Shown: positions 6,539 to 40,019 of the stretch, piece after piece
Numbering within the stretch: position 1 is the stretch's first letter
How the letters are laid out: every line of letters starts with the position of its first letter
Assembly: GCA_007376185.1 (NCBI GenBank)
Contig: VMFS01000001.1
Span: forward strand, 94,206 to 158,205
Direction: 5' to 3'
From: Parcubacteria group bacterium Gr01-1014_30
GTDB lineage: Bacteria > Patescibacteriota > Minisyncoccia > Minisyncoccales > 2-12-FULL-40-12
DNA length: 64,000 nt
Notes under the pieces: model-generated
What the model was told of the DNA's origin: nothing
What the model saw: only the letters and a program-made list of their open reading frames with translations
Databases searched by the model: none
Made by a program: the position numbers and the translations under genes

Positions 6539-8193
6539 ACTTGCCTTTACAAATTTTTGCCCTGGAAAACTTAGATCTTTTAATCCTTGGTATAGCAAAC
6601 ACCGCTATAACCCTTTTAGGTGTGGTGGTATTTCTCCGCAATACACGCAGTATTACTTACAAAACTTTTTTACTCTTCGCATTGGTAGCCTCTGTCTATG
6701 CGACCGTGAATTACATGAGCTACCAATCTAGTTCTTCTATTCTAGTACTTTGGGCACTCCGTTTCGTTCTTTTCTCTGCTACCTGGTACTCTTTTCTACT
6801 GTTGCAGCTTTTTTATGTCTTCCCAAAAGAACGTATTACATTTCCAAAATTGTACAGATTCTTCCTACTTCCAACGGTCACACTTACCTCTTTATTAACC
6901 CTAACTCCATTTGTATTCTCGCGGATATCAGAACTAGCGCCGGTAGGTCAAGTTACTAATCCTGAAAGAGGCATGGGCATTGTGCTATTTGCAATCATAA
7001 GCATCTTTCTAGTAGCCTACGGACTTTTTACTCTATTTAAAAAGACTTTTAGGGCAAAAGGTGAAGAAAGAGATCAGCTTCTTTTTGTACTGATTGGTTC
7101 TCTTATTACCTATGTCTTCATTATTGTATTCAACCTTATACTACCCGTGTTTTTTAACAATACCGTACTCATTCCCTTAGCCCCGGTCTTTACCCTTCCT
7201 TTTATTTCCTTCACTGCATATGCAATCCTTCGATACAAGCTTCTGAATATCAAGGTAATAGCTACGGAAGTTCTTACGTTTATGTTGGCGGCGGTTACAC
7301 TTTTTGAGGTGCTGTTTGCGCGAGAGCTCGGAGTGCTTATTTTCAGAATTGCTATTTTTGTCGCGGTGCTTGGATTTGGTATTTTGCTTATTCGGAGTGT
7401 AAGAAAGGAGGTGGAGCAGAGAGAGAAACTGGAGAGGTTAAGCGAGCAGCTGAAAACAGCCAACGTCAGGTTAGACGCGGCTTTAAAGAAAGTTGAGAAA
7501 CTATCAAAAGCAAAGTCCGAGTTTATTTCCATTGCTTCCCATCAACTAAGAACCCCTTTGACCGCCATAAAGGGATATATCTCAATGATTTTGGAAGGGA
7601 CTTACGGGCGTTTGTCAAAGAAAGCAAGAAGACCTATGGGAAACGTTTATGAGTCAAACGAGCGATTGATTCGTTTGATCAACGACCTGCTAGAGGTTTC
7701 CAGGATTGAAGCTGGCAAAATAGAGCTTGAGCTAGAAGAAGCCCGCGTTGAAGAAATTATTGAGGGCGTAGTTGCGGAATTGGGAATCACGGCTCAGCAG
7801 AAAAAGCTTTATCTGAAATGGGAAAAGCCGGAAACGCCTGCCCCGAAATTATTGCTGGATAAGCAAAAGATAAGGCAGGTTATCTTGAATTTGGTGAACA
7901 ATGCCGTAAAATATACTAAGGAAGGAGGCATCACCATTAAATTGAAAATTGAAAACTTAAAATTGAAAATTGCGATAGCTGATACTGGCGAGGGTATGAC
8001 TAAAGAGGATTTGGGGAAGGTATTTCAAAGCTTTTCCAGAGGGACAACAGGCGTCCGACTTTCAGCCGAAGGAGCAGGCCTTGGTCTGTATATAGCCAAA
8101 AAGTTTGTTGAAATGCACAGGGGCAGAATATGGGCAGAATCAGAAGGAAAAGGTAAGGGGTCAACTTTTTACGTTGAGTTGCCCATAAAGTAG
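6535..8193 (+). CDS. sensor histidine kinase with multi-TM N-terminal domain
   Basis: About seven hydrophobic helices, a coiled coil, then the HisKA motif SHQLRTPLTAIKGY. The HATPase_c region contains GEGMT and GAGLGLYI. Start overlaps the methyltransferase stop. Confidence 0.8.
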   Translation: MNLPLQIFALENLDLLILGIANTAITLLGVVVFLRNTRSITYKTFLLFALVASVYATVNYMSYQSSSSILVLWALRFVLFSATWYSFLLLQLFYVFPKERITFPKLYRFFLLPTVTLTSLLTLTPFVFSRISELAPVGQVTNPERGMGIVLFAIISIFLVAYGLFTLFKKTFRAKGEERDQLLFVLIGSLITYVFIIVFNLILPVFFNNTVLIPLAPVFTLPFISFTAYAILRYKLLNIKVIATEVLTFMLAAVTLFEVLFARELGVLIFRIAIFVAVLGFGILLIRSVRKEVEQREKLERLSEQLKTANVRLDAALKKVEKLSKAKSEFISIASHQLRTPLTAIKGYISMILEGTYGRLSKKARRPMGNVYESNERLIRLINDLLEVSRIEAGKIELELEEARVEEIIEGVVAELGITAQQKKLYLKWEKPETPAPKLLLDKQKIRQVILNLVNNAVKYTKEGGITIKLKIENLKLKIAIADTGEGMTKEDLGKVFQSFSRGTTGVRLSAEGAGLGLYIAKKFVEMHRGRIWAESEGKGKGSTFYVELPIK

Positions 8194-20257: not shown

Positions 20258-20531
20258 CGCGCGCGTTTTTTGAGCTAACTCCCATTTGGGGTATTGACAA
20301 ATTTAGGGAGAAGCGTATTTTAAAAATATGACAAATCAATTTGAAAAACCTCAAAAATCTGCTCAAGAGGCATCATCGCCGCCTTCGGCGGCGATGACCA
20401 AACCGCCACCTCTTCTGAAAATTCTGAATCGGATCTGCCGCTGGGATAAAAACTGCCAAAGAACCTGATAAAAATATCGGCTCGAACCATATAAATAAAA
20501 GAAACTTTTAATAAATTAATTTTATAAACAT

Positions 20532-21158: not shown

Positions 21159-21460
21159 ATTTTATTTCCACCTATTATTTTGTAAAAGAGTTTGCCGCCA
21201 GAGAAAAATTTATCTTTCGATGAGGCTCAGGACAATGGTGAGCTTGTCGAACCATTGAAATCGTCGCCTCGCTTTGCGAGGCGGCATCTGTGAATTTGAC
21301 CTTTTCCATTTGGCAGGGGAACTGCGGTTTGACTCTCAGAACGTGAACGACGATTTAAGTTATTTTACCAGGACTGGCGGTCTTAGAGGAAAAGTTCGTC
21401 AACTTTTGTTAGGTGAAGCTTTGTCTGGCGAATAATCTTTTGAGAAGCGCGTTTTTTGAG

Positions 21461-28963: not shown

Positions 28964-29035
28964 GTCCCTATAGCTCAGTGGATAGAGCGCCGGCCTCCGG
29001 AGCCGGAAACAGAGGTTCAAATCCTCTTAGGGACA
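28964..29035 (+). tRNA. tRNA-Arg (anticodon CCG)
   Basis: Cloverleaf folded by hand: acceptor GTCCCTA/TAGGGAC, D arm GCTC-AGTGGATA-GAGC, anticodon loop CTCCGGA, T arm AGAGG-TTCAAAT-CCTCT. Confidence 0.75.
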
Positions 29036-29045
29036 CAAACCTTTA

Positions 29046-29118
29046 TGCGCCCGGCAGGACTCGAACCTGCAGTCTCTTCCTCCGCAGGGAAACGCTTTAT
29101 CCATTAAGCTACGGGCGC
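29046..29118 (-). tRNA. tRNA-Arg (anticodon GCG as read, unusual)
   Basis: The reverse complement folds as acceptor GCGCCCG/CGGGCGC, D arm GCTT-AATGGATA-AAGC, anticodon loop CTGCGGA, T arm GCAGG-TTCGAGT-CCTGC. Confidence 0.65.
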
Positions 29119-29279
29119 AACCTGTTTTATGATACCGCCAAGGCCGCTTTACTTCAAGCCCCGTATATCATCTTCGACAGGATTTTCTTTTAGAAAATCC
29201 TGTAATCGCGAAGCGAGTCGAAGTTGTATTACGGGGCAAGGTTGACTTAGTTTATTTTAATAGGTAAGATATAGCCATT

Positions 29280-29368
29280 GGAGGAGTGCGTGAGTGGTTC
29301 AAACGAGCGGCTTGCTAAGCCGTGGCGGCCTAATAAGTCGCCCGTGGGTTCAAATCCCACCTCCTCCG
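29280..29368 (+). tRNA. tRNA-Ser (anticodon GCT), type II with long variable arm
   Basis: Acceptor GGAGGAG/CTCCTCC. Anticodon stem-loop GCGGC-TTGCTAA-GCCGT. Long variable arm. T arm GTGGG-TTCAAAT-CCCAC. Confidence 0.75.
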
Positions 29369-29414
29369 CACTTCGGAAGCTCAGTGCAAGCATTTGTTTT
29401 AAGAGTATAAATTA

Positions 29415-29576
29415 ATGAGTATGTGGTACACGTATGTGCTTCTTTGCGATCAGAAAACTTTTTATGTAGGAGTTACAGATAACCCTGTAGCGAGGATAGG
29501 TCAACATAGAAATAGAAAACCACTTTTTACTAAAAAGTTTTTCCCACCTCCTCCGCTTTCTGGAGGGTTCGCCTAA
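29415..29576 (+). pseudogene. truncated GIY-YIG nuclease gene remnant running into tRNA-Ser(TGA)
   Basis: Translation MSMWYTYVLLCDQKTFYVGVTDNPVARIGQHRN is the GIY-YIG N-terminal motif. Compare the intact paralogue at 48518-48775. The ORF stops after 54 aa inside the tRNA. Confidence 0.6.
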
Positions 29577-29646
29577 TGGTATGGCACCGCTCTTGAAAAG
29601 CGGCGGACGAAAGTCCTTAGAGGTTCGAGTCCTCTACCCTCCGCCA
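29562..29646 (+). tRNA. tRNA-Ser (anticodon TGA) with encoded CCA
   Basis: Acceptor GGAGGGT/ACCCTCC. Anticodon stem-loop CCGCT-CTTGAAA-AGCGG. Long variable arm. Ends GCCA. Confidence 0.75.
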
Positions 29647-33763: not shown

Positions 33764-34921
33764 ATGTTAAAGCAAAAGGGTATAACAACTACTCAAACTA
33801 TATTGATTATTGCAGTAATATTGCTATTGATTTTAATTATTAGCAGAGCTAATCGCAGACAAGACTTACAAGAAGGAGTTCCCGAAGAGATAGATATCGA
33901 TATTCCCGGAAGCATGGTTAAGAAAATTTCACTATTGGCAACGAGTTCATATGCCGGCAGAGTGGACTGGTCGCATGCAAATAACCTTATCGCATTTTCT
34001 AAAGTCGGCGACGACGGCTATGCAGATATCTATACTATGAATTCGGATGGTTCAAATAAAACCTGTTTGACTTGCGGCGCAGTCGGTGTTCCGCAGTTTT
34101 ATAACGACCAGCCGGTGTGGCACCCATCCGGAGACTATATTATCTTTCAAGCCCAGGATCCCAATTTAAGTTCTCTGTCTACGTATTTGGTGCAAGGCGG
34201 CGCAGGACTTAATAATAATTTATGGGCCATAAGTAAAGACGGACAGCGGTCCTGGCAGTTGACGCACATTGAGGATAGGGAAGCAACACTTCATTCGCAT
34301 TTTTCTCATGACGGTAAAAAGTTGCTTTGGGCGGCTCGAGAATTGCAAGACGGCAAGAAAGCCCAGTGGATGCTTAAAATCGCTGATTTTATCGTGGATG
34401 GCGGCGGCCCTCGTTTAGCCAATGAAAAAACCTATCAGCCAATGGGCGAAAATGTATTCTACGAAAGCCATAGTTTTACTCATGATGGTCAAAAGATTAT
34501 TTTTTCGGCCAGTTACACTGCCCCGGCTTTTGATTTGGATATTTATATTTTGGATCTTCGAACCAATAAGCTCACCAACCTGACCAATTCTCCCGGAGAG
34601 TGGGATGAACATTCTATTCTTTCTCCCAACAACAGATTAGCTTGGATATCAAGCAAAGGATACTCATTCACCCCCTCCGCGAATTGGGGCGCAACTCTTA
34701 AAACCGATCTCTGGCTTATGAATCTGGACGGAAGCAATAAAACAAAGGTTACTCACTTTAATGAGCCGGGCTATCCGGAATATGAGAGCGGGAAAAGGGT
34801 GATTGCTGCTGATAATTCTTGGAACAAAACCGGAGATAAGCTAGTATTAACTCTTGGCGTAATAAAAGGTAAAACCGTTGGCAGTAGGGTAGTATTAGTG
34901 GAATTTAACAGTCCTCAATGA
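33764..34921 (+). CDS. TolB-like beta-propeller (PD40 repeat) secreted/membrane-anchored protein
   Basis: N-terminal TM helix. Repeated xDGSNKTxLT/WHPSGD PD40-like blades. Paralogue of 38778-40019. Confidence 0.55.
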   Translation: MLKQKGITTTQTILIIAVILLLILIISRANRRQDLQEGVPEEIDIDIPGSMVKKISLLATSSYAGRVDWSHANNLIAFSKVGDDGYADIYTMNSDGSNKTCLTCGAVGVPQFYNDQPVWHPSGDYIIFQAQDPNLSSLSTYLVQGGAGLNNNLWAISKDGQRSWQLTHIEDREATLHSHFSHDGKKLLWAARELQDGKKAQWMLKIADFIVDGGGPRLANEKTYQPMGENVFYESHSFTHDGQKIIFSASYTAPAFDLDIYILDLRTNKLTNLTNSPGEWDEHSILSPNNRLAWISSKGYSFTPSANWGATLKTDLWLMNLDGSNKTKVTHFNEPGYPEYESGKRVIAADNSWNKTGDKLVLTLGVIKGKTVGSRVVLVEFNSPQ

Positions 34922-35049
34922 TTAAAACTGGTTGCCGTCGCCGCCCTGCCCGCCGAAGTCTACCTACTCCGCCGAAGTAGCTTCAGCTACGAAGGCCGGG
35001 CAACGCAGGCGGGGCCCAGCCAGTTCTGTTCGGATATTTTCAAACAGAC

Positions 35050-35227
35050 ACCGCCAGTTGGGAAATGAAGCACTTGGCTCGCCCGCTCCCACTTCGCCCT
35101 TCGGGCTACGAGGGACAAGTACGCGGGCTCGCCATCCGTTTTTCGGGGAAATTTCAAGCCGTTTTGCCTGCCCGCCGAAGCCTTGGCGCAGGCGGGAATT
35201 CAGTAAGGCCAGAAGCGGGCTTTTCTT
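35050..35227. repeat. GC-rich structured element, copy 1 (about 180 bp; UUCG-capped and GC-stem hairpins)
   Basis: Near-identical to 36230-36375 apart from a 33-bp indel. Much higher GC than the surroundings. Confidence 0.6.
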
Positions 35228-35244
35228 TACGGAATGGAAATTTT

Positions 35245-35292
35245 TTGATATCATAAATTTGAAATCATAATCCGTGATTTGATGATATCAAA
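35245..35292. promoter_or_regulatory. palindromic operator-like site upstream of the XRE regulator gene
   Basis: Inverted repeat TTTGATATCAT...ATGATATCAAA ends 12 bp before the ATG at 35304. Confidence 0.45.
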
Positions 35293-35303
35293 GTTTTGAA
35301 ACT

Positions 35304-35501
35304 ATGGCAACAATAGGTGAAAATATCAAAAAATACCGCAACAAACTTAGCATGACACAAGACGATCTAGTGAGAAAGTCCGGTGTGAAGCACACGACCC
35401 TTACGAAAATCGAAGGCGATTTTGTAAAAAAGCCAAGTGTTCAAGTGATAGCAAAAATCTCTAAAGCGTTGGGCGTACCAATGGAAGATTTGATAAAATA
35501 A
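35304..35501 (+). CDS. XRE-family (Cro/C1-type) helix-turn-helix transcriptional regulator
   Basis: IKKYRNKLSMTQDDLVRKSGVKHTTLTKIE is the canonical HTH_XRE. Confidence 0.8.
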   Translation: MATIGENIKKYRNKLSMTQDDLVRKSGVKHTTLTKIEGDFVKKPSVQVIAKISKALGVPMEDLIK

Positions 35502-35507
35502 AAAGGT

Positions 35508-36095
35508 ATGCAGAAAAATCTCGAAAACAACAAAATTATTATCATTACTCTTTCACTTTTAGCTGTACTTGGTGTTTTTTACTTTTATTGGAAATCTGGA
35601 AAGTCTTCAAGTATCAACGAGAATGTTGTGACTGAAAAAATAGTATTTGAGGCGGTTCCTAAAAATTATTTAGAATGTATGGAAACCGAAAATAAATATA
35701 ATTTTCGAAACAGAAATCGGTCAATGCTATCCTGTTCATATACAGTTTTTCCTGAAGAGATACCGAACATCGATCCCCAAGCGGTAGATAAAAACAAATA
35801 TGATGAATGTGTAAAAGAAAAAGGTCATCCAATTTCTTTTGCTGGAGATTGCTCATTTTTATTTTACAACCCAGATTATACATTTCCACAAAGTTTTAGA
35901 GAATGTGTCGATGAGAAAAAAGGAGAATTTACTACTTCCGTTAGACCTCGCTGTATGATTAATATTACTGTTTTAGGTGCCGCAAATGTTGATGTAGCCA
36001 ACAACTTAATCAATAAATGCGTAGCTTTGGGAGGGATGTATAGCGAAGAATTTGGTCGTCAATGCTACATAGAATTCGATGAAAGTAATCTATAG
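35508..36095 (+). CDS. Cys-rich secreted/membrane-anchored hypothetical protein
   Basis: N-terminal TM/signal helix and about 10 Cys. Co-transcribed with the XRE gene. Confidence 0.45.
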   Translation: MQKNLENNKIIIITLSLLAVLGVFYFYWKSGKSSSINENVVTEKIVFEAVPKNYLECMETENKYNFRNRNRSMLSCSYTVFPEEIPNIDPQAVDKNKYDECVKEKGHPISFAGDCSFLFYNPDYTFPQSFRECVDEKKGEFTTSVRPRCMINITVLGAANVDVANNLINKCVALGGMYSEEFGRQCYIEFDESNL

Positions 36096-36229
36096 GTCTG
36101 TTGTTAATAAGAATTTGCCGCCAAAGAAAAACTTGAAATTGTTAATGTTCGCGGCTTCGCAGCGCGGATTTCTGCCCGCCACCCACGCCGCCTTCGGCGG
36201 CGAATTCCGTTCGAGCTATTTTTAGAATA

Positions 36230-36375
36230 CACCGCCAGTTGGGAAATGAAGTCATTGGCTCGCCCGCTACGCGGGCTCGCCAGCCGTTTTTCGGGGAAAT
36301 TTCAAGCCGTTTTGCCTGCCCGCCGAAGCCTTGGCGCAGGCGGGAATTCAGTAAGGCCAGAAGCGGGCTTTTCTT
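36230..36375. repeat. GC-rich structured element, copy 2
   Basis: See copy 1. Lies about 175 bp upstream of the gene at 36550. Confidence 0.6.
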
Positions 36376-36549
36376 GAAAGAATTAAGATTTTTTGATATC
36401 GTAATCTTGAAAGCATCTTATGACAAGTTATTGCTAAAATTGCAAAGGCATTAGGTGTTGATATAGAATAGAAGATATGATAAAAAAGGTTTATACTGTG
36501 GATGAAGTCGACTCTACAATGAAATTAATAAGACCATTAAATAAAAAGT

Positions 36550-37665
36550 ATGTCAGAAGTAAATAACAATAATCGTATGAAGCAGACTTCTAACGGGGTG
36601 AAGTTTTTTGTAACACTGTTTATTATTACATCGTTCATTTTCGTCGGAGGAAGTGCCATAGCCCAGGATCAGCAAGTGGCGTTGCCTTCAGCTGGTCTTA
36701 CCCCCGAAAGCTCCTTTTATTTTATTGACAGATTCGGAGAAGCACTGCGTGAGTTTTTCACTTTTAATCCAGATGGTAAAGCCCGCCTTCAGATCACTTT
36801 TGCCGCCGAACGAGTTGCCGAGATAAAAGTTATTCTTGAAACAAAGGGCGTTCAAGCGCCGGGCCTCGAAGTTGCCCAAAGCCGCCTGCAAGCGCATCTT
36901 GCTAATGCCGCCACCATCGTTACTGAACAAAAAGCAAAAGGAAAAGATGTGAGCCAACTTGCCAAAGAGCTGAACGATGAGTTTGGAAGTTCCAAAACCG
37001 CTCTTCGGCAAAGTTTCAAAGCAAAAGAGCGAGCATTAGAAACTCAAGAAAAAGATTTGAAAGCAAAAATCCGTGAAGCACGGATTGCCGGCGACGCCGC
37101 CCAAGTTGAGGCGTTAGTTAAGCAATTAGGAGAAGTCAAAGCGCAAAAAGACCTTTTGGAACTTAGAGAAAAGGAGCAGGAAGAAGCGTTAGAGCGGGAA
37201 GAAGAAAAGATTGAGCGGGAGATGGATAAAAAAGAGGATGCCCAAAAAGCCATAAAAGAAGCTGAAGAAGAAAAGCAGGAAGTATTGGATGAGGCCGCCG
37301 AGGAGGGTGTTGATGTTCCTGCAGAAGCGTTTGAAAAATTTGACCGCCTCCTTACTCAAGCCAAAGAACTCTTTGCCAAAGAGAACTATGTCGGCGCGAA
37401 ACAATTAGCCAAGCAGGCAGAAAAAAGCCTTGAAAAAGTAGAGGAGGCAATTGAAGATTTGGAAGAAGCAAAAGAGAAAGAGGAAGAATTAAAAGAGGAA
37501 CAAGAGGAGAAAGAGCGCGAGGCTAAAGAAGAGCAGGAAGAAAAAATAAAGGAAGAGGCGGAAAAGGAAGCCGAACGATTAGAAAAAGAAAGAGAAAAAG
37601 CCGAAGAGGATGCGCGTAAAGCCGAAGAGAGATTGCGTGAAGCAGGAAATGAAGACGAAGATTAA
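36550..37665 (+). CDS. secreted E/K-rich coiled-coil protein
   Basis: Signal/TM helix followed by about 250 aa of EK-rich heptad-like sequence. Confidence 0.5.
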   Translation: MSEVNNNNRMKQTSNGVKFFVTLFIITSFIFVGGSAIAQDQQVALPSAGLTPESSFYFIDRFGEALREFFTFNPDGKARLQITFAAERVAEIKVILETKGVQAPGLEVAQSRLQAHLANAATIVTEQKAKGKDVSQLAKELNDEFGSSKTALRQSFKAKERALETQEKDLKAKIREARIAGDAAQVEALVKQLGEVKAQKDLLELREKEQEEALEREEEKIEREMDKKEDAQKAIKEAEEEKQEVLDEAAEEGVDVPAEAFEKFDRLLTQAKELFAKENYVGAKQLAKQAEKSLEKVEEAIEDLEEAKEKEEELKEEQEEKEREAKEEQEEKIKEEAEKEAERLEKEREKAEEDARKAEERLREAGNEDED

Positions 37666-37725
37666 TTTTTAGAGATATTTTCAAACAGACATCGCCCTTG
37701 ACAGCGTTATACCAGAGTATATACT

Positions 37726-38010
37726 ATGGTTAGTATGGAGAAAACAATACTTAACGTTAAAACCGATAAAAAATTGAAGGAAGCTGCGCAAAAAGCCGCA
37801 CAGGAGCTTGGCTTGCCTCTTGGCACCATAGTTAACGCCTACCTTCGTGAGTTGGCGCGCGAAAAAAGAATACTATTTTCCGTTCCTCCCGTGCCAAATC
37901 TGCGATTACAAAGGCTCTTAAAAAAGGTTAGAAAAGAAACGAGTAAAAGCAGGAGACGCGCGAAGCCATTTACTTACGAGGAGGCAGTTAAATATCTGGA
38001 TAGATTATGA
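37726..38010 (+). CDS. type II antitoxin, RelB/DinJ (ribbon-helix-helix) family
   Basis: LNVKTDKKLKEAAQKAAQELGLPLGTIVNAYL is RHH-like. Stop overlaps the toxin start. Confidence 0.7.
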   Translation: MVSMEKTILNVKTDKKLKEAAQKAAQELGLPLGTIVNAYLRELAREKRILFSVPPVPNLRLQRLLKKVRKETSKSRRRAKPFTYEEAVKYLDRL

Positions 38011-38267
38011 AAGTTAGCTTTCATAACCGTTTCAATAAAAGTTATAAGAGATGTCCCGCAAAAGTTCAGAAACAATTTAAGAAACGGCTCAAGTCATTCC
38101 TTGAAAACCCGTATAATCCTTTATTAGAAAACCATGCGCTCGGAGGCGACTGGCAGGATTTTCGCAGCATCAACGTAACCGGGGATTATCGCGCCCTCTA
38201 TTATCATTTGGTAGACGACACTGTAGAATTTTTTATAATTGATACGCACAGCAATTTGTACGGGTAG
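38007..38267 (+). CDS. type II toxin, RelE/ParE/YafQ family mRNA interferase
   Basis: LGGDWQDFRSINVTGDYRALYY...FFIIDTHSNLY matches the RelE-fold motifs. Confidence 0.7.
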   Translation: MKVSFHNRFNKSYKRCPAKVQKQFKKRLKSFLENPYNPLLENHALGGDWQDFRSINVTGDYRALYYHLVDDTVEFFIIDTHSNLYG

Positions 38268-38471
38268 AAGGTTAAAGGAATAAAAAATTCCTTCACCCAA
38301 ATTTTTGCTCCATTTCATTCCGCAAAAACTTCGCATACTCTTAAACGTTATATCAAAAAGAATTTGCCGCCAAAGAAAAACTTGTGGTTCGACAAGCTCA
38401 CCATCCTGAACGAAGTTGAAGGAAAATTGTTAATGTCCGCCTCTGGTTGTTATGGTATACTTTAAAATAAT

Positions 38472-38777: not shown

Positions 38778-40019
38778 ATGAAAAAAGTTTTAATTATCGG
38801 CGTTTTTGTCATTTTAGCCCTTGTCGCATTGGGTTTGATTGGCAACATAAGAAAGGGGGAAGAACTTACTCCTGAACCGACACCTTCTCCAACACCAACA
38901 CCAGCTGATAGTTCCGTACCGACTCCAACCCCAACTCCTATTAAAGGAGCCCAGAACGACAGAATAGAAAGTATGAGAGTTATTCTTGAGGAAGGCGCCC
39001 GGCCAAGATTTTCGCCTGATGGCCAGTATTTTCTCTTTGACCGCAGGAATAGTAACGACCTTTATGCCGATCTTTATGTTTCTGATTTAAACGGCGGGAT
39101 AGTTACCAGATTAACTGAAGGGCGGGAAGGAGTAAACCAGCGCAATAACGGCAATGGTGTATATCATTCAAGTAAGAATTATATTATCTTTATTTCTGAA
39201 GAATCAGGCCACTACTTGGATGACGACAAGTGGTTGGCTGATCCCGGAATTGGTCTTTTTTCTAACCTTTACGCCACCGATTTTTCTGGAAGCAGATTCT
39301 GGAAGCTTACCGATATTCCGATCAAGAAAGCATTAGGAGATGGGATTCCGGCTACGGCCACAGTCAACCCTCATTTCCTGAAAAACGGAACTCTAATCTG
39401 GACTGAACGCTACGCAGAAGGCGGAAATTTAAATTGGGGAAAATGGCGGCTAAAGGCGGCTGATTTTGTTGAAGAAAATGGAGTTCCCAAATTAATAAAC
39501 ACGCGGGTAGTATACACCCCGGCTAATGGAAATTATGTAACTTTCATGGGCGAGCTTGATTCGGACAACTGGGTTGTTTCCGGCAACCTTAACGGCCAGC
39601 ACGAATATGGAATGGACCAGTATGTCCTTAATATCAGAAATGGCTCGCTTAAAAATCTTACCAACACGCCCGAATACTGGGAAGAAGATTCAAGTCTTAC
39701 TCCAAGCGGCAAGATCGTCTATATGAGCAACATTGATTCGCAGTATAAGTTTGATTTTACCAAAGACTGGGTTATCCAGAAAGTGGAAAGGGATTACTAC
39801 ATAACCGACAGGAACGGCGGGCAAAAAGAAAGATTGACTTTCTTTAACGAGCCGGGTGCGGTGGAGAAATCAGAATATGCCATTCTATCCGTGGCTGCTG
39901 ATATCAGCCCTGACGGCAAGTATATGGCCGGAACAGTCGGAGTGCAATTCGGTGCAGGGAAAGATCGAGGGAGAATAGTCTTGAAAATAGTATTGATTAA
40001 GTTTAAAAATCCGTTTTAA
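38778..40019 (+). CDS. TolB-like beta-propeller (PD40 repeat) protein, paralogue 2, with PT-rich linker
   Basis: TM helix, PTPSPTPTP linker, and PD40-like blades (YVSDLNGGIVTRLTEG; YITDRNGGQKERLTFFNEPG). Confidence 0.55.
   Translation: MKKVLIIGVFVILALVALGLIGNIRKGEELTPEPTPSPTPTPADSSVPTPTPTPIKGAQNDRIESMRVILEEGARPRFSPDGQYFLFDRRNSNDLYADLYVSDLNGGIVTRLTEGREGVNQRNNGNGVYHSSKNYIIFISEESGHYLDDDKWLADPGIGLFSNLYATDFSGSRFWKLTDIPIKKALGDGIPATATVNPHFLKNGTLIWTERYAEGGNLNWGKWRLKAADFVEENGVPKLINTRVVYTPANGNYVTFMGELDSDNWVVSGNLNGQHEYGMDQYVLNIRNGSLKNLTNTPEYWEEDSSLTPSGKIVYMSNIDSQYKFDFTKDWVIQKVERDYYITDRNGGQKERLTFFNEPGAVEKSEYAILSVAADISPDGKYMAGTVGVQFGAGKDRGRIVLKIVLIKFKNPF

Follow-up and report, generated by a model that had tools for sequence, protein, structure and literature searches.

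A duplicated GC-rich repeat in a Parcubacteria contig is very probably the end module of tRNA-Ser-targeting large serine recombinase elements

A stretch of 64,000 nucleotides from contig VMFS01000001.1 of Parcubacteria group bacterium Gr01-1014_30 (the window) contains a GC-rich repeat in two neighboring copies, A and B, for which an original prediction had proposed a riboswitch- or attenuator-like leader RNA or, alternatively, a miniature inverted-repeat transposable element (MITE). Small integrative elements that insert site-specifically at the 3′ ends of tRNA-Ser genes in many uncultivated bacteria, and whose autonomous relatives encode a large serine recombinase (LSR), very probably gave rise to both copies, each being the left-end module of one such element. 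The two copies in the window lie in tandem and are recombinase-less, and we therefore read them as a mobile-DNA scar and not as a regulatory RNA.

The two copies are as near-identical as had been reported, and their limits could be refined to 35051-35229 (copy A) and 36232-36377 (copy B). They lie in direct orientation with starts 1.18 kb apart and differ by one base outside two indels; the additional 33-nt hairpin with a UUCG loop (TCCCACTTCGCCCTTCGGGCTACGAGGGACAAG) is present, as predicted, in copy A only. In the window, a 22-mer and a 30-mer taken from the element are found exactly two times each, where none is expected (100 shuffles), and the regions of the two copies are its biggest GC islands (302 and 237 nt at ∼0.6 GC, against 0.42 for the window), which confirms the GC richness noted earlier. 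The repeat exceeds the extent first reported, leftward at 77% similarity to 35019/36200 and rightward at ∼93% similarity to 35268/36416, where it reaches the AT-rich, promoter-like stretch upstream of a gene for an XRE-family regulator. This XRE gene starts 75 nt downstream of copy A. Copy B was likewise said to occupy the 5′ region of a gene and does precede one, encoding a DUF5667 protein and starting 173 nt downstream, but the remnant of an XRE gene (36427-36471) separates the two.

Relatives were collected with the 20-mer CCGCCAGTTGGGAAATGAAG from the 5′ end of the element as a probe against species-representative genomes, and were numbered as loci (L). The 20-mer is present in 44 species genomes, which belong mostly to the candidate phyla radiation (CPR)/Patescibacteria, with further cases in Chloroflexi, Acidobacteriota, and Dadabacteria. 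Five of the 44 (L005, L012, L020, L032, and probably L021) were set aside as the bare 20-mer in unrelated sequence; the remaining loci have 50-200 nt in common with the window at 95-100% identity. A repeat confined to this genome, which would have counted against the original prediction, is not what was found; the element is conserved at that level across phyla.

The minus strand of both copies is homologous to the end of an LSR gene. In L046, a 499-codon open reading frame (ORF) with Resolvase, Recombinase, and Zn_ribbon_recom domains encodes an LSR, and its 3′ end is the reverse complement of the element (..LNSKRLEISPKNGWRARVAGEPMASFPNWR), running on into the antisense strand of tRNA-Ser (..RGGDSNPR). 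The domain architecture was confirmed in L046, L015, and L030, with 120 homologues among the matches listed, and LSRs at 58-65% identity still carry a homologous tail. The pattern ..GSNFILKDKKF.F..KIGWRALAEGEP...F.NWRRGRDSNPR is shared by 29 database homologues (59-94% identity) within a family of >7,700 members at E ≤ 1e-30, for which the best annotation is "recombinase family protein"; weak sequence matches are to the SPbeta and A118 integrase structures. The residues past the core vary with the junction, being either ..FPNWR followed by RGRDSNPR.. (tRNA antisense) or CLFENIRTE.. (P arm, see below). In the window, the minus strand of copy B matches LSR residues 455-482 with 93% identity (tblastn, E 1.3e-12), and that of copy A matches the tail with E 1.5e-9 (tblastn) and residues 456-483 of P0002 with E 5e-14 (BLASTP), with an 11-residue in-frame gap at the 33-nt insert. 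ORFs do run through the two copies, as had been pointed out, but given this homology they are remnants of a genuine gene end and not spurious. Only scraps of the LSR gene are found in the window (Table 1), and its two copies are therefore non-autonomous.

The other side of the element is defined by tRNA genes. At 22 sites, the first six nucleotides of the 20-mer (CCGCCA) are the last six of a complete tRNA gene called by ARAGORN, always in the same orientation; 20 of these genes are tRNA-Ser, covering all four isoacceptors, and the others are one tRNA-Asp and one tRNA-Trp. At about seven further sites the element lies behind tRNA 3′ fragments. The core CCGCCA equals the acceptor end of tRNA-Ser, with the discriminator G and CCA, and to its left stands either the tRNA or a conserved P arm, of which there are two types. 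The arm in front of copy A is of type 1 (..CGTTCGGATATTTTCAAACAGACA) and that in front of copy B is of type 2 (..CGTTCGAGCTATTTTTAGAATACA); both occur in other genomes. In five genome loci a P arm is followed by unrelated sequence, and a metagenome scan for P arm type 1 plus CCG returned at least 120 stretches. Among the matches listed, the P arm runs into a diverse flank at 117 of 128 sites and into a P′ arm at eight. The diverse flank often consists of CCA, a hairpin, and a T run, resembling a native tRNA terminator. Divergence begins 0-3 nt past CCG, leaving CCG(CCA) as the common core, and the crossover is therefore placed at the discriminator/CCA.

All four junction types of a site-specific element are found: attL, in which the tRNA is joined to the P′ arm (22 sites); attP, in which the P arm is joined to the P′ arm; attR, in which the P arm is joined to the diverse flank (117 sites); and an attB-like junction, which is the tRNA-Ser(UGA) of the window with its own native flank. 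Elements bounded by direct attL and attR sites at a defined target include L011 (1.07 kb), L088 (3.2 kb), L154, L159, L106, and others. Among the matches listed, a tRNA-Ser of matching orientation lies 0.5-4.4 kb (median ∼1.4 kb) upstream of 30 of the 62 sites with at least 1.5 kb of upstream DNA, and the interval up to the P arm usually holds a P′ arm and an XRE gene; a long LSR is seen in only one of the 30 (L088, 3.2 kb). Most copies are recombinase-less mini-elements that consist of an XRE gene and one cargo gene, for example, for a methyltransferase, a metallophosphoesterase, or a small membrane protein, and XRE homologues occupy the equivalent position in at least 15 loci.

The window contains two such LSR-less mini-elements in tandem, each starting with the core and a P′ arm and ending with a P arm: mini-element 2 (35051-36231; XRE and Cys-rich protein genes) and mini-element 3 (36232-37692; XRE remnant and DUF5667 gene). 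The coordinates of their parts are given in Table 1. The right boundary of the array, at 37674-37696, fits the pattern of the 117 attR-like metagenome sites. The inverted repeat at 35244-35292 is, judging from the promoter-like hexamers it covers, the probable operator/promoter of the XRE gene, and the tail hairpin predicted without the insert is weak. An exact look-up of the Cys-rich protein returned one ENA metagenome contig (36.7 kb) with the same genes; the same look-up of the XRE protein returned no record.

Table 1. Parts of the mini-element array, palindromic inserts, and related sites in other loci (h33 and h30, mini-palindromes of 33 and 30 nt; M1, LSR codons 28-40)
Feature	Position	Strand	Evidence or remark
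tRNA-Ser(UGA), ends CCGCCA then GTT	29562-29646	+	ARAGORN, Rfam; nearest possible anchor (attB/attL side), putative link
GC-rich spacer, right-end module of preceding element	34925-35026	+	homologous to L046 1040-1122 and other loci
h30-type palindrome with second hairpin nested in its loop	34945-35013		in GC-rich spacer
P arm type 1 (TGTTCGGATATTTTCAAACAGACA), right terminus of element family	35027-35050	+	same 24-mer in 12 other loci and at least 120 metagenome stretches
Core CCGCCA, crossover region	35051-35056	+	identical to tRNA-Ser end
Copy A P′ arm, remnant of last ∼30 LSR codons, h33 in frame	35051-35166	-	tblastn, BLASTP
h33, UUCG-capped	35087-35119		in loop of conserved tail hairpin; identical insert at same place in L036 and L030
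h30 (CCTGCCCGCCGAAGCCTTGGCGCAGGCGGG)	35167-35196		missing in most homologues; present in L027 and in a phage ORF of L001
Terminator-like tail (AATTCAGTAAGGCCAGAAGCGGGCTTTTCTT)	35197-35229	+	follows P′ arm where XRE or LSR genes follow
14-nt inverted repeat (TTTGATATCATAAA / TTGATGATATCAAA) over promoter-like hexamers	35244-35292	+
XRE-family helix-turn-helix gene, 65 aa, regulator module of the element	35304-35501	+	Pfam HTH_3, E 1e-12
Cys-rich protein, N-terminal hydrophobic segment, cargo of mini-element 2	35508-36095	+	no Pfam match
M1 scrap (AAGAATTTGCCGCCAAAGAAAAACTTGAAATTGT)	36109-36142	+	97% identity to L046 1352-1385
P arm type 2 (CGTTCGAGCTATTTTTAGAATACA), right terminus of mini-element 2	36208-36231	+	also in L008, L022, L030, L033
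Copy B core and P′ arm, LSR tail remnant	36232-36314	-	tblastn
h30, second copy	36315-36344		copy B
Copy B terminator-like tail	36345-36377	+
XRE remnant, last 14 codons (VIAKIAKALGVDIE*)	36427-36471	+	direct reading against XRE C-terminus
DUF5667 coiled-coil protein, cargo of mini-element 3	36550-37665	+	Pfam PF18915, E 2.6e-13
attR-like junction: P arm (GATATTTTCAAACAGACA) and mutated core TCGCCC	37674-37696	+	then unrelated sequence (RelB/ParE promoter)
M1 scrap split by 39-nt insert	38357-38445	+
39-nt palindromic insert	38385-38423		splits M1 scrap
Third M1 scrap, with 42-nt insert	21185-21283	+
42-nt palindromic insert	21213-21254		in third M1 scrap
Further LSR scrap	20450-20495	-
Putative attP center (∼60 bp site)			..CAAACAGACACCGCCAGTTGGGAAATGAAG..
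Inverted-repeat pairs around LSR genes	L046 1147-1236 / 2623-2712; L030 5594-5706 / 7096-7208		also in L037, L088

In autonomous relatives, the order is tRNA-Ser, P′ arm, an LSR gene converging on the tRNA, XRE gene, cargo, P arm, and native tRNA flank. The module comprises the core CCGCCA, the P′ arm (whose minus strand is the last ∼30 codons of the LSR gene), the terminator-like tail, and the XRE promoter/operator. The LSR would catalyze integration with a crossover at or beside the CCG of the core. The mini-elements of the window have lost their LSR genes except for scraps, and they meet at junctions of the attP type (P arm, core, P′ arm), as expected from accretion of successive elements at one site. 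An LSR encoded by a relative may mobilize them, or may once have done so, in either trans or cis. The conserved GC hairpin and U-rich tract could substitute for the displaced tRNA terminator and shield the convergent LSR gene from read-through; in the window, they would serve only as an intergenic terminator or insulator before the XRE promoter.

Three features point to mobility. Loci whose LSR genes share 88-91% identity have modules (P arm, P′ arm, and tail) at 97-100% identity. The copy in L013 is flanked on both sides by Chloroflexi genes of 61% GC and lies beside tadA, and another copy is found in an Acidobacteriota contig of 59% GC. Many matches are at contig ends, which is expected of a repeat. 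BLAST searches of phage and plasmid collections gave no match, and scans of viral contigs gave one, which covers only the 30-nt h30 insert within a phage ORF.

Several points weigh against this assignment. No intact LSR gene lies in the 64-kb window, and the present-day mobility of both copies is unproven. The array lacks a direct tRNA attachment, with the nearest tRNA-Ser 5.4 kb upstream of copy A and three ordinary-looking genes in between; only GTT of the P′ arm follows that tRNA-Ser(UGA), and the attR-like core at 37692 is mutated. Tandem attP-type junctions are also not the canonical product of attP x attB recombination and need an attP x attL exchange, integration of a multimer, or homologous recombination. 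A normal LSR site spans ∼50 bp, and so recombinase binding by itself does not account for near-perfect conservation over ∼230 nt. The autonomous copies hold an internal, inverted copy of the module that is unexplained. All of the evidence comes from metagenome-assembled genomes and metagenome contigs, for which binning or co-assembly errors are possible in some host assignments, and recombination by this LSR family is a prediction from sequence.

The over-conservation and the inverted copy also speak for a rival explanation, an unlikely one in our view, in which the repeats are active sites of an inversion or cassette-shuffling switch and the arrays are an integron-like cassette platform instead of decayed elements. 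In this case the LSR would invert both its own gene and the XRE-cargo segment between oppositely oriented module copies. The second, inverted copy of the module lies just upstream of the LSR start in autonomous copies, and the LSR gene is therefore bracketed by inverted repeats of 90-113 nt. One arm of these is the 3′ coding end of the LSR gene itself, and the arms co-vary between two diverged lineages. Relative to the P arm and XRE gene, the LSR segment has one orientation in L046 and L088 and the other in L043, L027, and L011. Cassette-like arrays are present in L022 and L030, and the module is more strongly conserved than the LSR gene. Set against these are the direct, not inverted, orientation of the window copies, the lack of an LSR in the window, the one orientation of nearly all full-length LSR genes, which converge on the tRNA, and the fact that homologous recombination between 90-nt repeats suffices for inversions. 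The inverted internal module and the M1 breakpoint could not be derived from simple steps of integration, deletion, and inversion. As a doubtful extension, the ∼230-nt module may do more than serve as a passive att site. A self-inversion switch acting there could alternate the LSR gene between transcription from the tRNA-Ser promoter and XRE control, or the module may encode a structured RNA for recombination or tRNA 3′ processing, with the recombinase-less cassettes forming an integron-like, serine-recombinase-driven capture platform at tRNA-Ser genes in CPR.

LSR codons 28-40 (AAGAATTTGCCGCCAAAGAAAAACTTGAAAT) are a recurrent breakpoint at which truncated recombinase genes begin, and isolated scraps of these codons lie directly left of the right-end module of mini-elements. 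The sites are 36109-36142, 38357-38384, and 21185-21211 in the window, ∼6038 in L009, 4326 in L026, 3430 and 4792 in L022, and 4745-4780 in L030. We also considered an origin of the P arm and GC-rich spacer in the 5′ coding region of the LSR gene and rejected it, as local alignments were not significant against shuffles. Within the wider family, homologue cluster P0022 has the LSR fused to XRE-type helix-turn-helix domains (559 aa), and L110 encodes a 53%-identical LSR which runs into tRNA-Val antisense; the latter suggests that LSR clades may target different tRNAs.

The leader RNA of the original prediction would control the XRE and secreted-protein genes from the plus strand via alternative CCCGCC/GGCGGG and GCCCGC/GCGGGC-U-run pairings, and we consider it very unlikely. 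A cmscan of the window, both at the gathering threshold and at E ≤ 10, returned four tRNAs and noise only, with no Rfam family for the element, in agreement with the earlier failure to match it to a riboswitch consensus. Minimum free energies of both copies on both strands are no better than those of dinucleotide shuffles (z = +0.20, +0.08, +0.38, and -0.82), and the RNAalifold consensus of 17 copies is weak (-4.9 kcal/mol). The multi-stem fold is thus not supported across homologues. What remains is a single conserved hairpin in the LSR tail, with an outer stem of 3-5 bp, a 2x2 internal loop, an inner GC stem of 6-8 bp, and a 3-nt loop. Compensatory changes within the family preserve it in at least five versions that differ in stem sequence, and in the form GGCUC-GCCCGC-UAC-GCGGGC-UCGCC it is more stable than shuffles (z -2.45). 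This hairpin favors a leader, as do the greater conservation of the module compared with the recombinase gene and its position, in many loci, ahead of the start codon of an XRE or LSR gene, but the hairpin is equally explicable as a terminator or a DNA palindrome. The element moreover has no constant 5′-UTR position; it is found directly behind tRNA genes, upstream of LSR genes, upstream of XRE genes, and within LSR coding sequence, contexts so varied that it is not the leader of one gene class. In autonomous copies its opposite strand is protein-coding. We therefore see no support for a riboswitch or attenuator leader.

The nested stems that had suggested an RNA exist as sequence, but they are largely separate palindromic insertions of 30-33 nt and not parts of one fold. 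In an alignment of 17 copies, the 33-nt hairpin and the 30-nt hairpin (CCTGCCCGCC..GGCGGG) are lineage-specific inserts missing in most copies. The predicted terminator stem (GCCCGC...GCGGGC with T run) has its 5′ arm within the 30-nt insert, which is missing in 12 of 14 aligned type-I copies, and is therefore not a family feature; the alternative-pairing arms lie in the same insert. A consensus terminator scan did not call this stem, the sole terminator-like call of the region being 35008-35030, which lies to the left of the core in the GC-rich spacer and the P arm. Inserts of 39-42 nt form a family found within M1 scraps and, in L039, within the P′ arm. All of the palindromic inserts have lengths that are multiples of three and on the LSR-coding strand are in frame without stops. 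In form, they are like Rickettsia palindromic elements and yeast mitochondrial GC clusters, which are also short GC-rich palindromes inside other sequences, including coding sequence, with lengths in multiples of three and no stop codon introduced; unlike these, the inserts here are nested within a mobile-element module. GC-rich palindromic inserts of 30-42 nt are also seen at L001 633-662 (phage ORF), L005 4635-4673, and L039 3391-3429.

A MITE or repetitive extragenic palindrome (REP), mobilized through terminal inverted repeats by a trans-acting transposase, would likewise be GC-rich, palindrome-rich, multi-copy, and prone to break assemblies, with non-autonomous copies far outnumbering autonomous ones, and in proposing a mobile repeat the original prediction came close to the truth. 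The MITE itself is highly improbable. The 150-180-nt module has neither terminal inverted repeats of its own nor a target-site duplication, its flanks are a P arm or tRNA on one side and an XRE or LSR gene on the other, and insertion is site-specific at tRNA 3′ ends in a fixed orientation. The associated enzyme is an LSR and not a DDE or HUH transposase, and the 64-kb window holds only two full copies, which are adjacent. A REP/MITE label may suit the nested 30-42-nt inserts. Finally, a simple duplication in place, in which the XRE upstream region was copied in tandem and one XRE copy then decayed, with no mobile-element meaning, would account for direct copies 1.18 kb apart, each followed by promoter-like sequence and an XRE gene or remnant, but is extremely improbable given that 95-100% identical sequence occurs in dozens of unrelated genomes at tRNA-Ser ends and beside LSR genes, that the left flanks are two different P-arm types each common to other genomes, and that divergence is far greater in the XRE remnant than in the module.

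Among described systems, the closest to the tRNA-Ser-targeting elements is the Int/attP unit of the Ralstonia filamentous phages phiRSM1 and phiRSM3, in which the 13-nt core used by a serine recombinase matches the 3′ end of tRNA-Ser exactly, in reverse orientation, and attP lies between int and a gene for a repressor-like DNA-binding protein (Askora et al. 2011, reviewed in PMC3816273). The phiRSM core (TGGCGGAGAGGGT) is reversed relative to int, and the order int, attP, repressor resembles the family order of LSR, TGGCGG core, XRE. The phiRSM Int is small and of the resolvase/invertase type, whereas the LSR here is large and carries Recombinase and Zn-ribbon domains. The ORF here also runs through the core into tRNA antisense, and the elements are 1-3 kb without phage genes in mainly CPR hosts. 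For the two copies of the window, the best description is the decay and tandem accretion of cis-mobilizable elements (CIMEs), which have lost the integrase, keep att-type ends, and come to lie in tandem with related elements at one site through decay and repeated integration, as in ICESt1/ICESt3 and IME_Sag2603_tRNAlys (PMC5704250). Known CIMEs derive from integrative and conjugative or integrative and mobilizable elements with tyrosine (or DDE) integrases and genes for conjugation or mobilization. Here, in contrast, the parent is a 3-kb LSR and XRE element without transfer genes, and the units are joined by full attP-type sites.

The LSR shares its domain architecture, a short common core with dissimilar arms, and an attP beside int with the integrases of phiC31, Bxb1, and A118/LI. 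A GTTCG(A/G) motif lies 29 nt from the core in both P arms, 5 nt farther than in the tRNA T-loop (24 nt). In A118, a motif for the zinc-ribbon domain is reportedly shifted ∼5 bp outward in attP relative to attB, and by analogy the 5-nt offset could be a lead. Unlike for those phage integrases, the target is the 3′ end of a tRNA, a type of site that usually belongs to tyrosine integrases, ∼230 nt are near-invariant around the site, and a second, inverted site flanks the gene. An att site that overlaps the integrase ORF and targets a tRNA gene is familiar from SSV-type archaeal integrases, in which attP is inside int and integration alters the ORF; these are tyrosine recombinases whose gene is split in two, whereas here only the residues past the core change. 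The tycheposons of Prochlorococcus are reportedly small and cargo-carrying, insert at tRNA genes, and accumulate in islands, with LSRs in some of them; by description they differ from the present family in recombinase lineage, hosts, and att sequences. An integron cassette with attC was rejected since the enzyme is a serine recombinase and the junction is a tRNA-derived core with asymmetric arms (IntI was looked for within the ORF/Pfam survey of 29.7-40.7 kb). A search of the literature on LSRs in CPR, Patescibacteria, or Saccharibacteria with tRNA-Ser found no description of this family.

The surroundings of the array contain further features. Directly after the attR-like junction lies a pair of genes for a RelB-like antitoxin and a ParE/YafQ-like toxin (37726-38267), with a near-consensus promoter (TTGACA-17-TATACT) at 37698-37726, and two paralogous PD40/beta-propeller secreted proteins (33764-34921, 385 aa; 38778-40019, 413 aa) flank the array. 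Upstream, a convergent pair of tRNA-Arg genes at 28964-29119 (CCG on the plus and GCG on the minus strand, 8 nt apart) opens a cluster of four tRNA genes. Between its tRNA-Ser(GCU) and tRNA-Ser(UGA) is a half-length GIY-YIG nuclease ORF (29415-29573; Pfam PF01541, E 2.8e-7), with a 14-nt direct repeat of the tRNA-Ser(GCU) 3′ end on either side (29356-29369, 29543-29556). Its appearance is that of another small insertion, unrelated to the array, at the 3′ end of a tRNA gene.

The idea of a mobile repeat was right in spirit, the repeat being the attachment-end module of tRNA-Ser-targeting LSR elements, here in two decayed tandem mini-elements, and one candidate riboswitch is removed from the list. 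In CPR and other groundwater and soil genomes, this conserved element breaks assemblies and spawns spurious ORFs, and recognizing it flags small islands and their cargo behind tRNA-Ser genes. A very large LSR family appears to use tRNA 3′ ends, with an ORF that runs into tRNA antisense. Near-identical elements are found in different phyla, including CPR, whose routes of gene exchange are poorly known. The finding itself is modest, and some upside lies in two unexplained traits of the module, its over-conservation and its inverted architecture.

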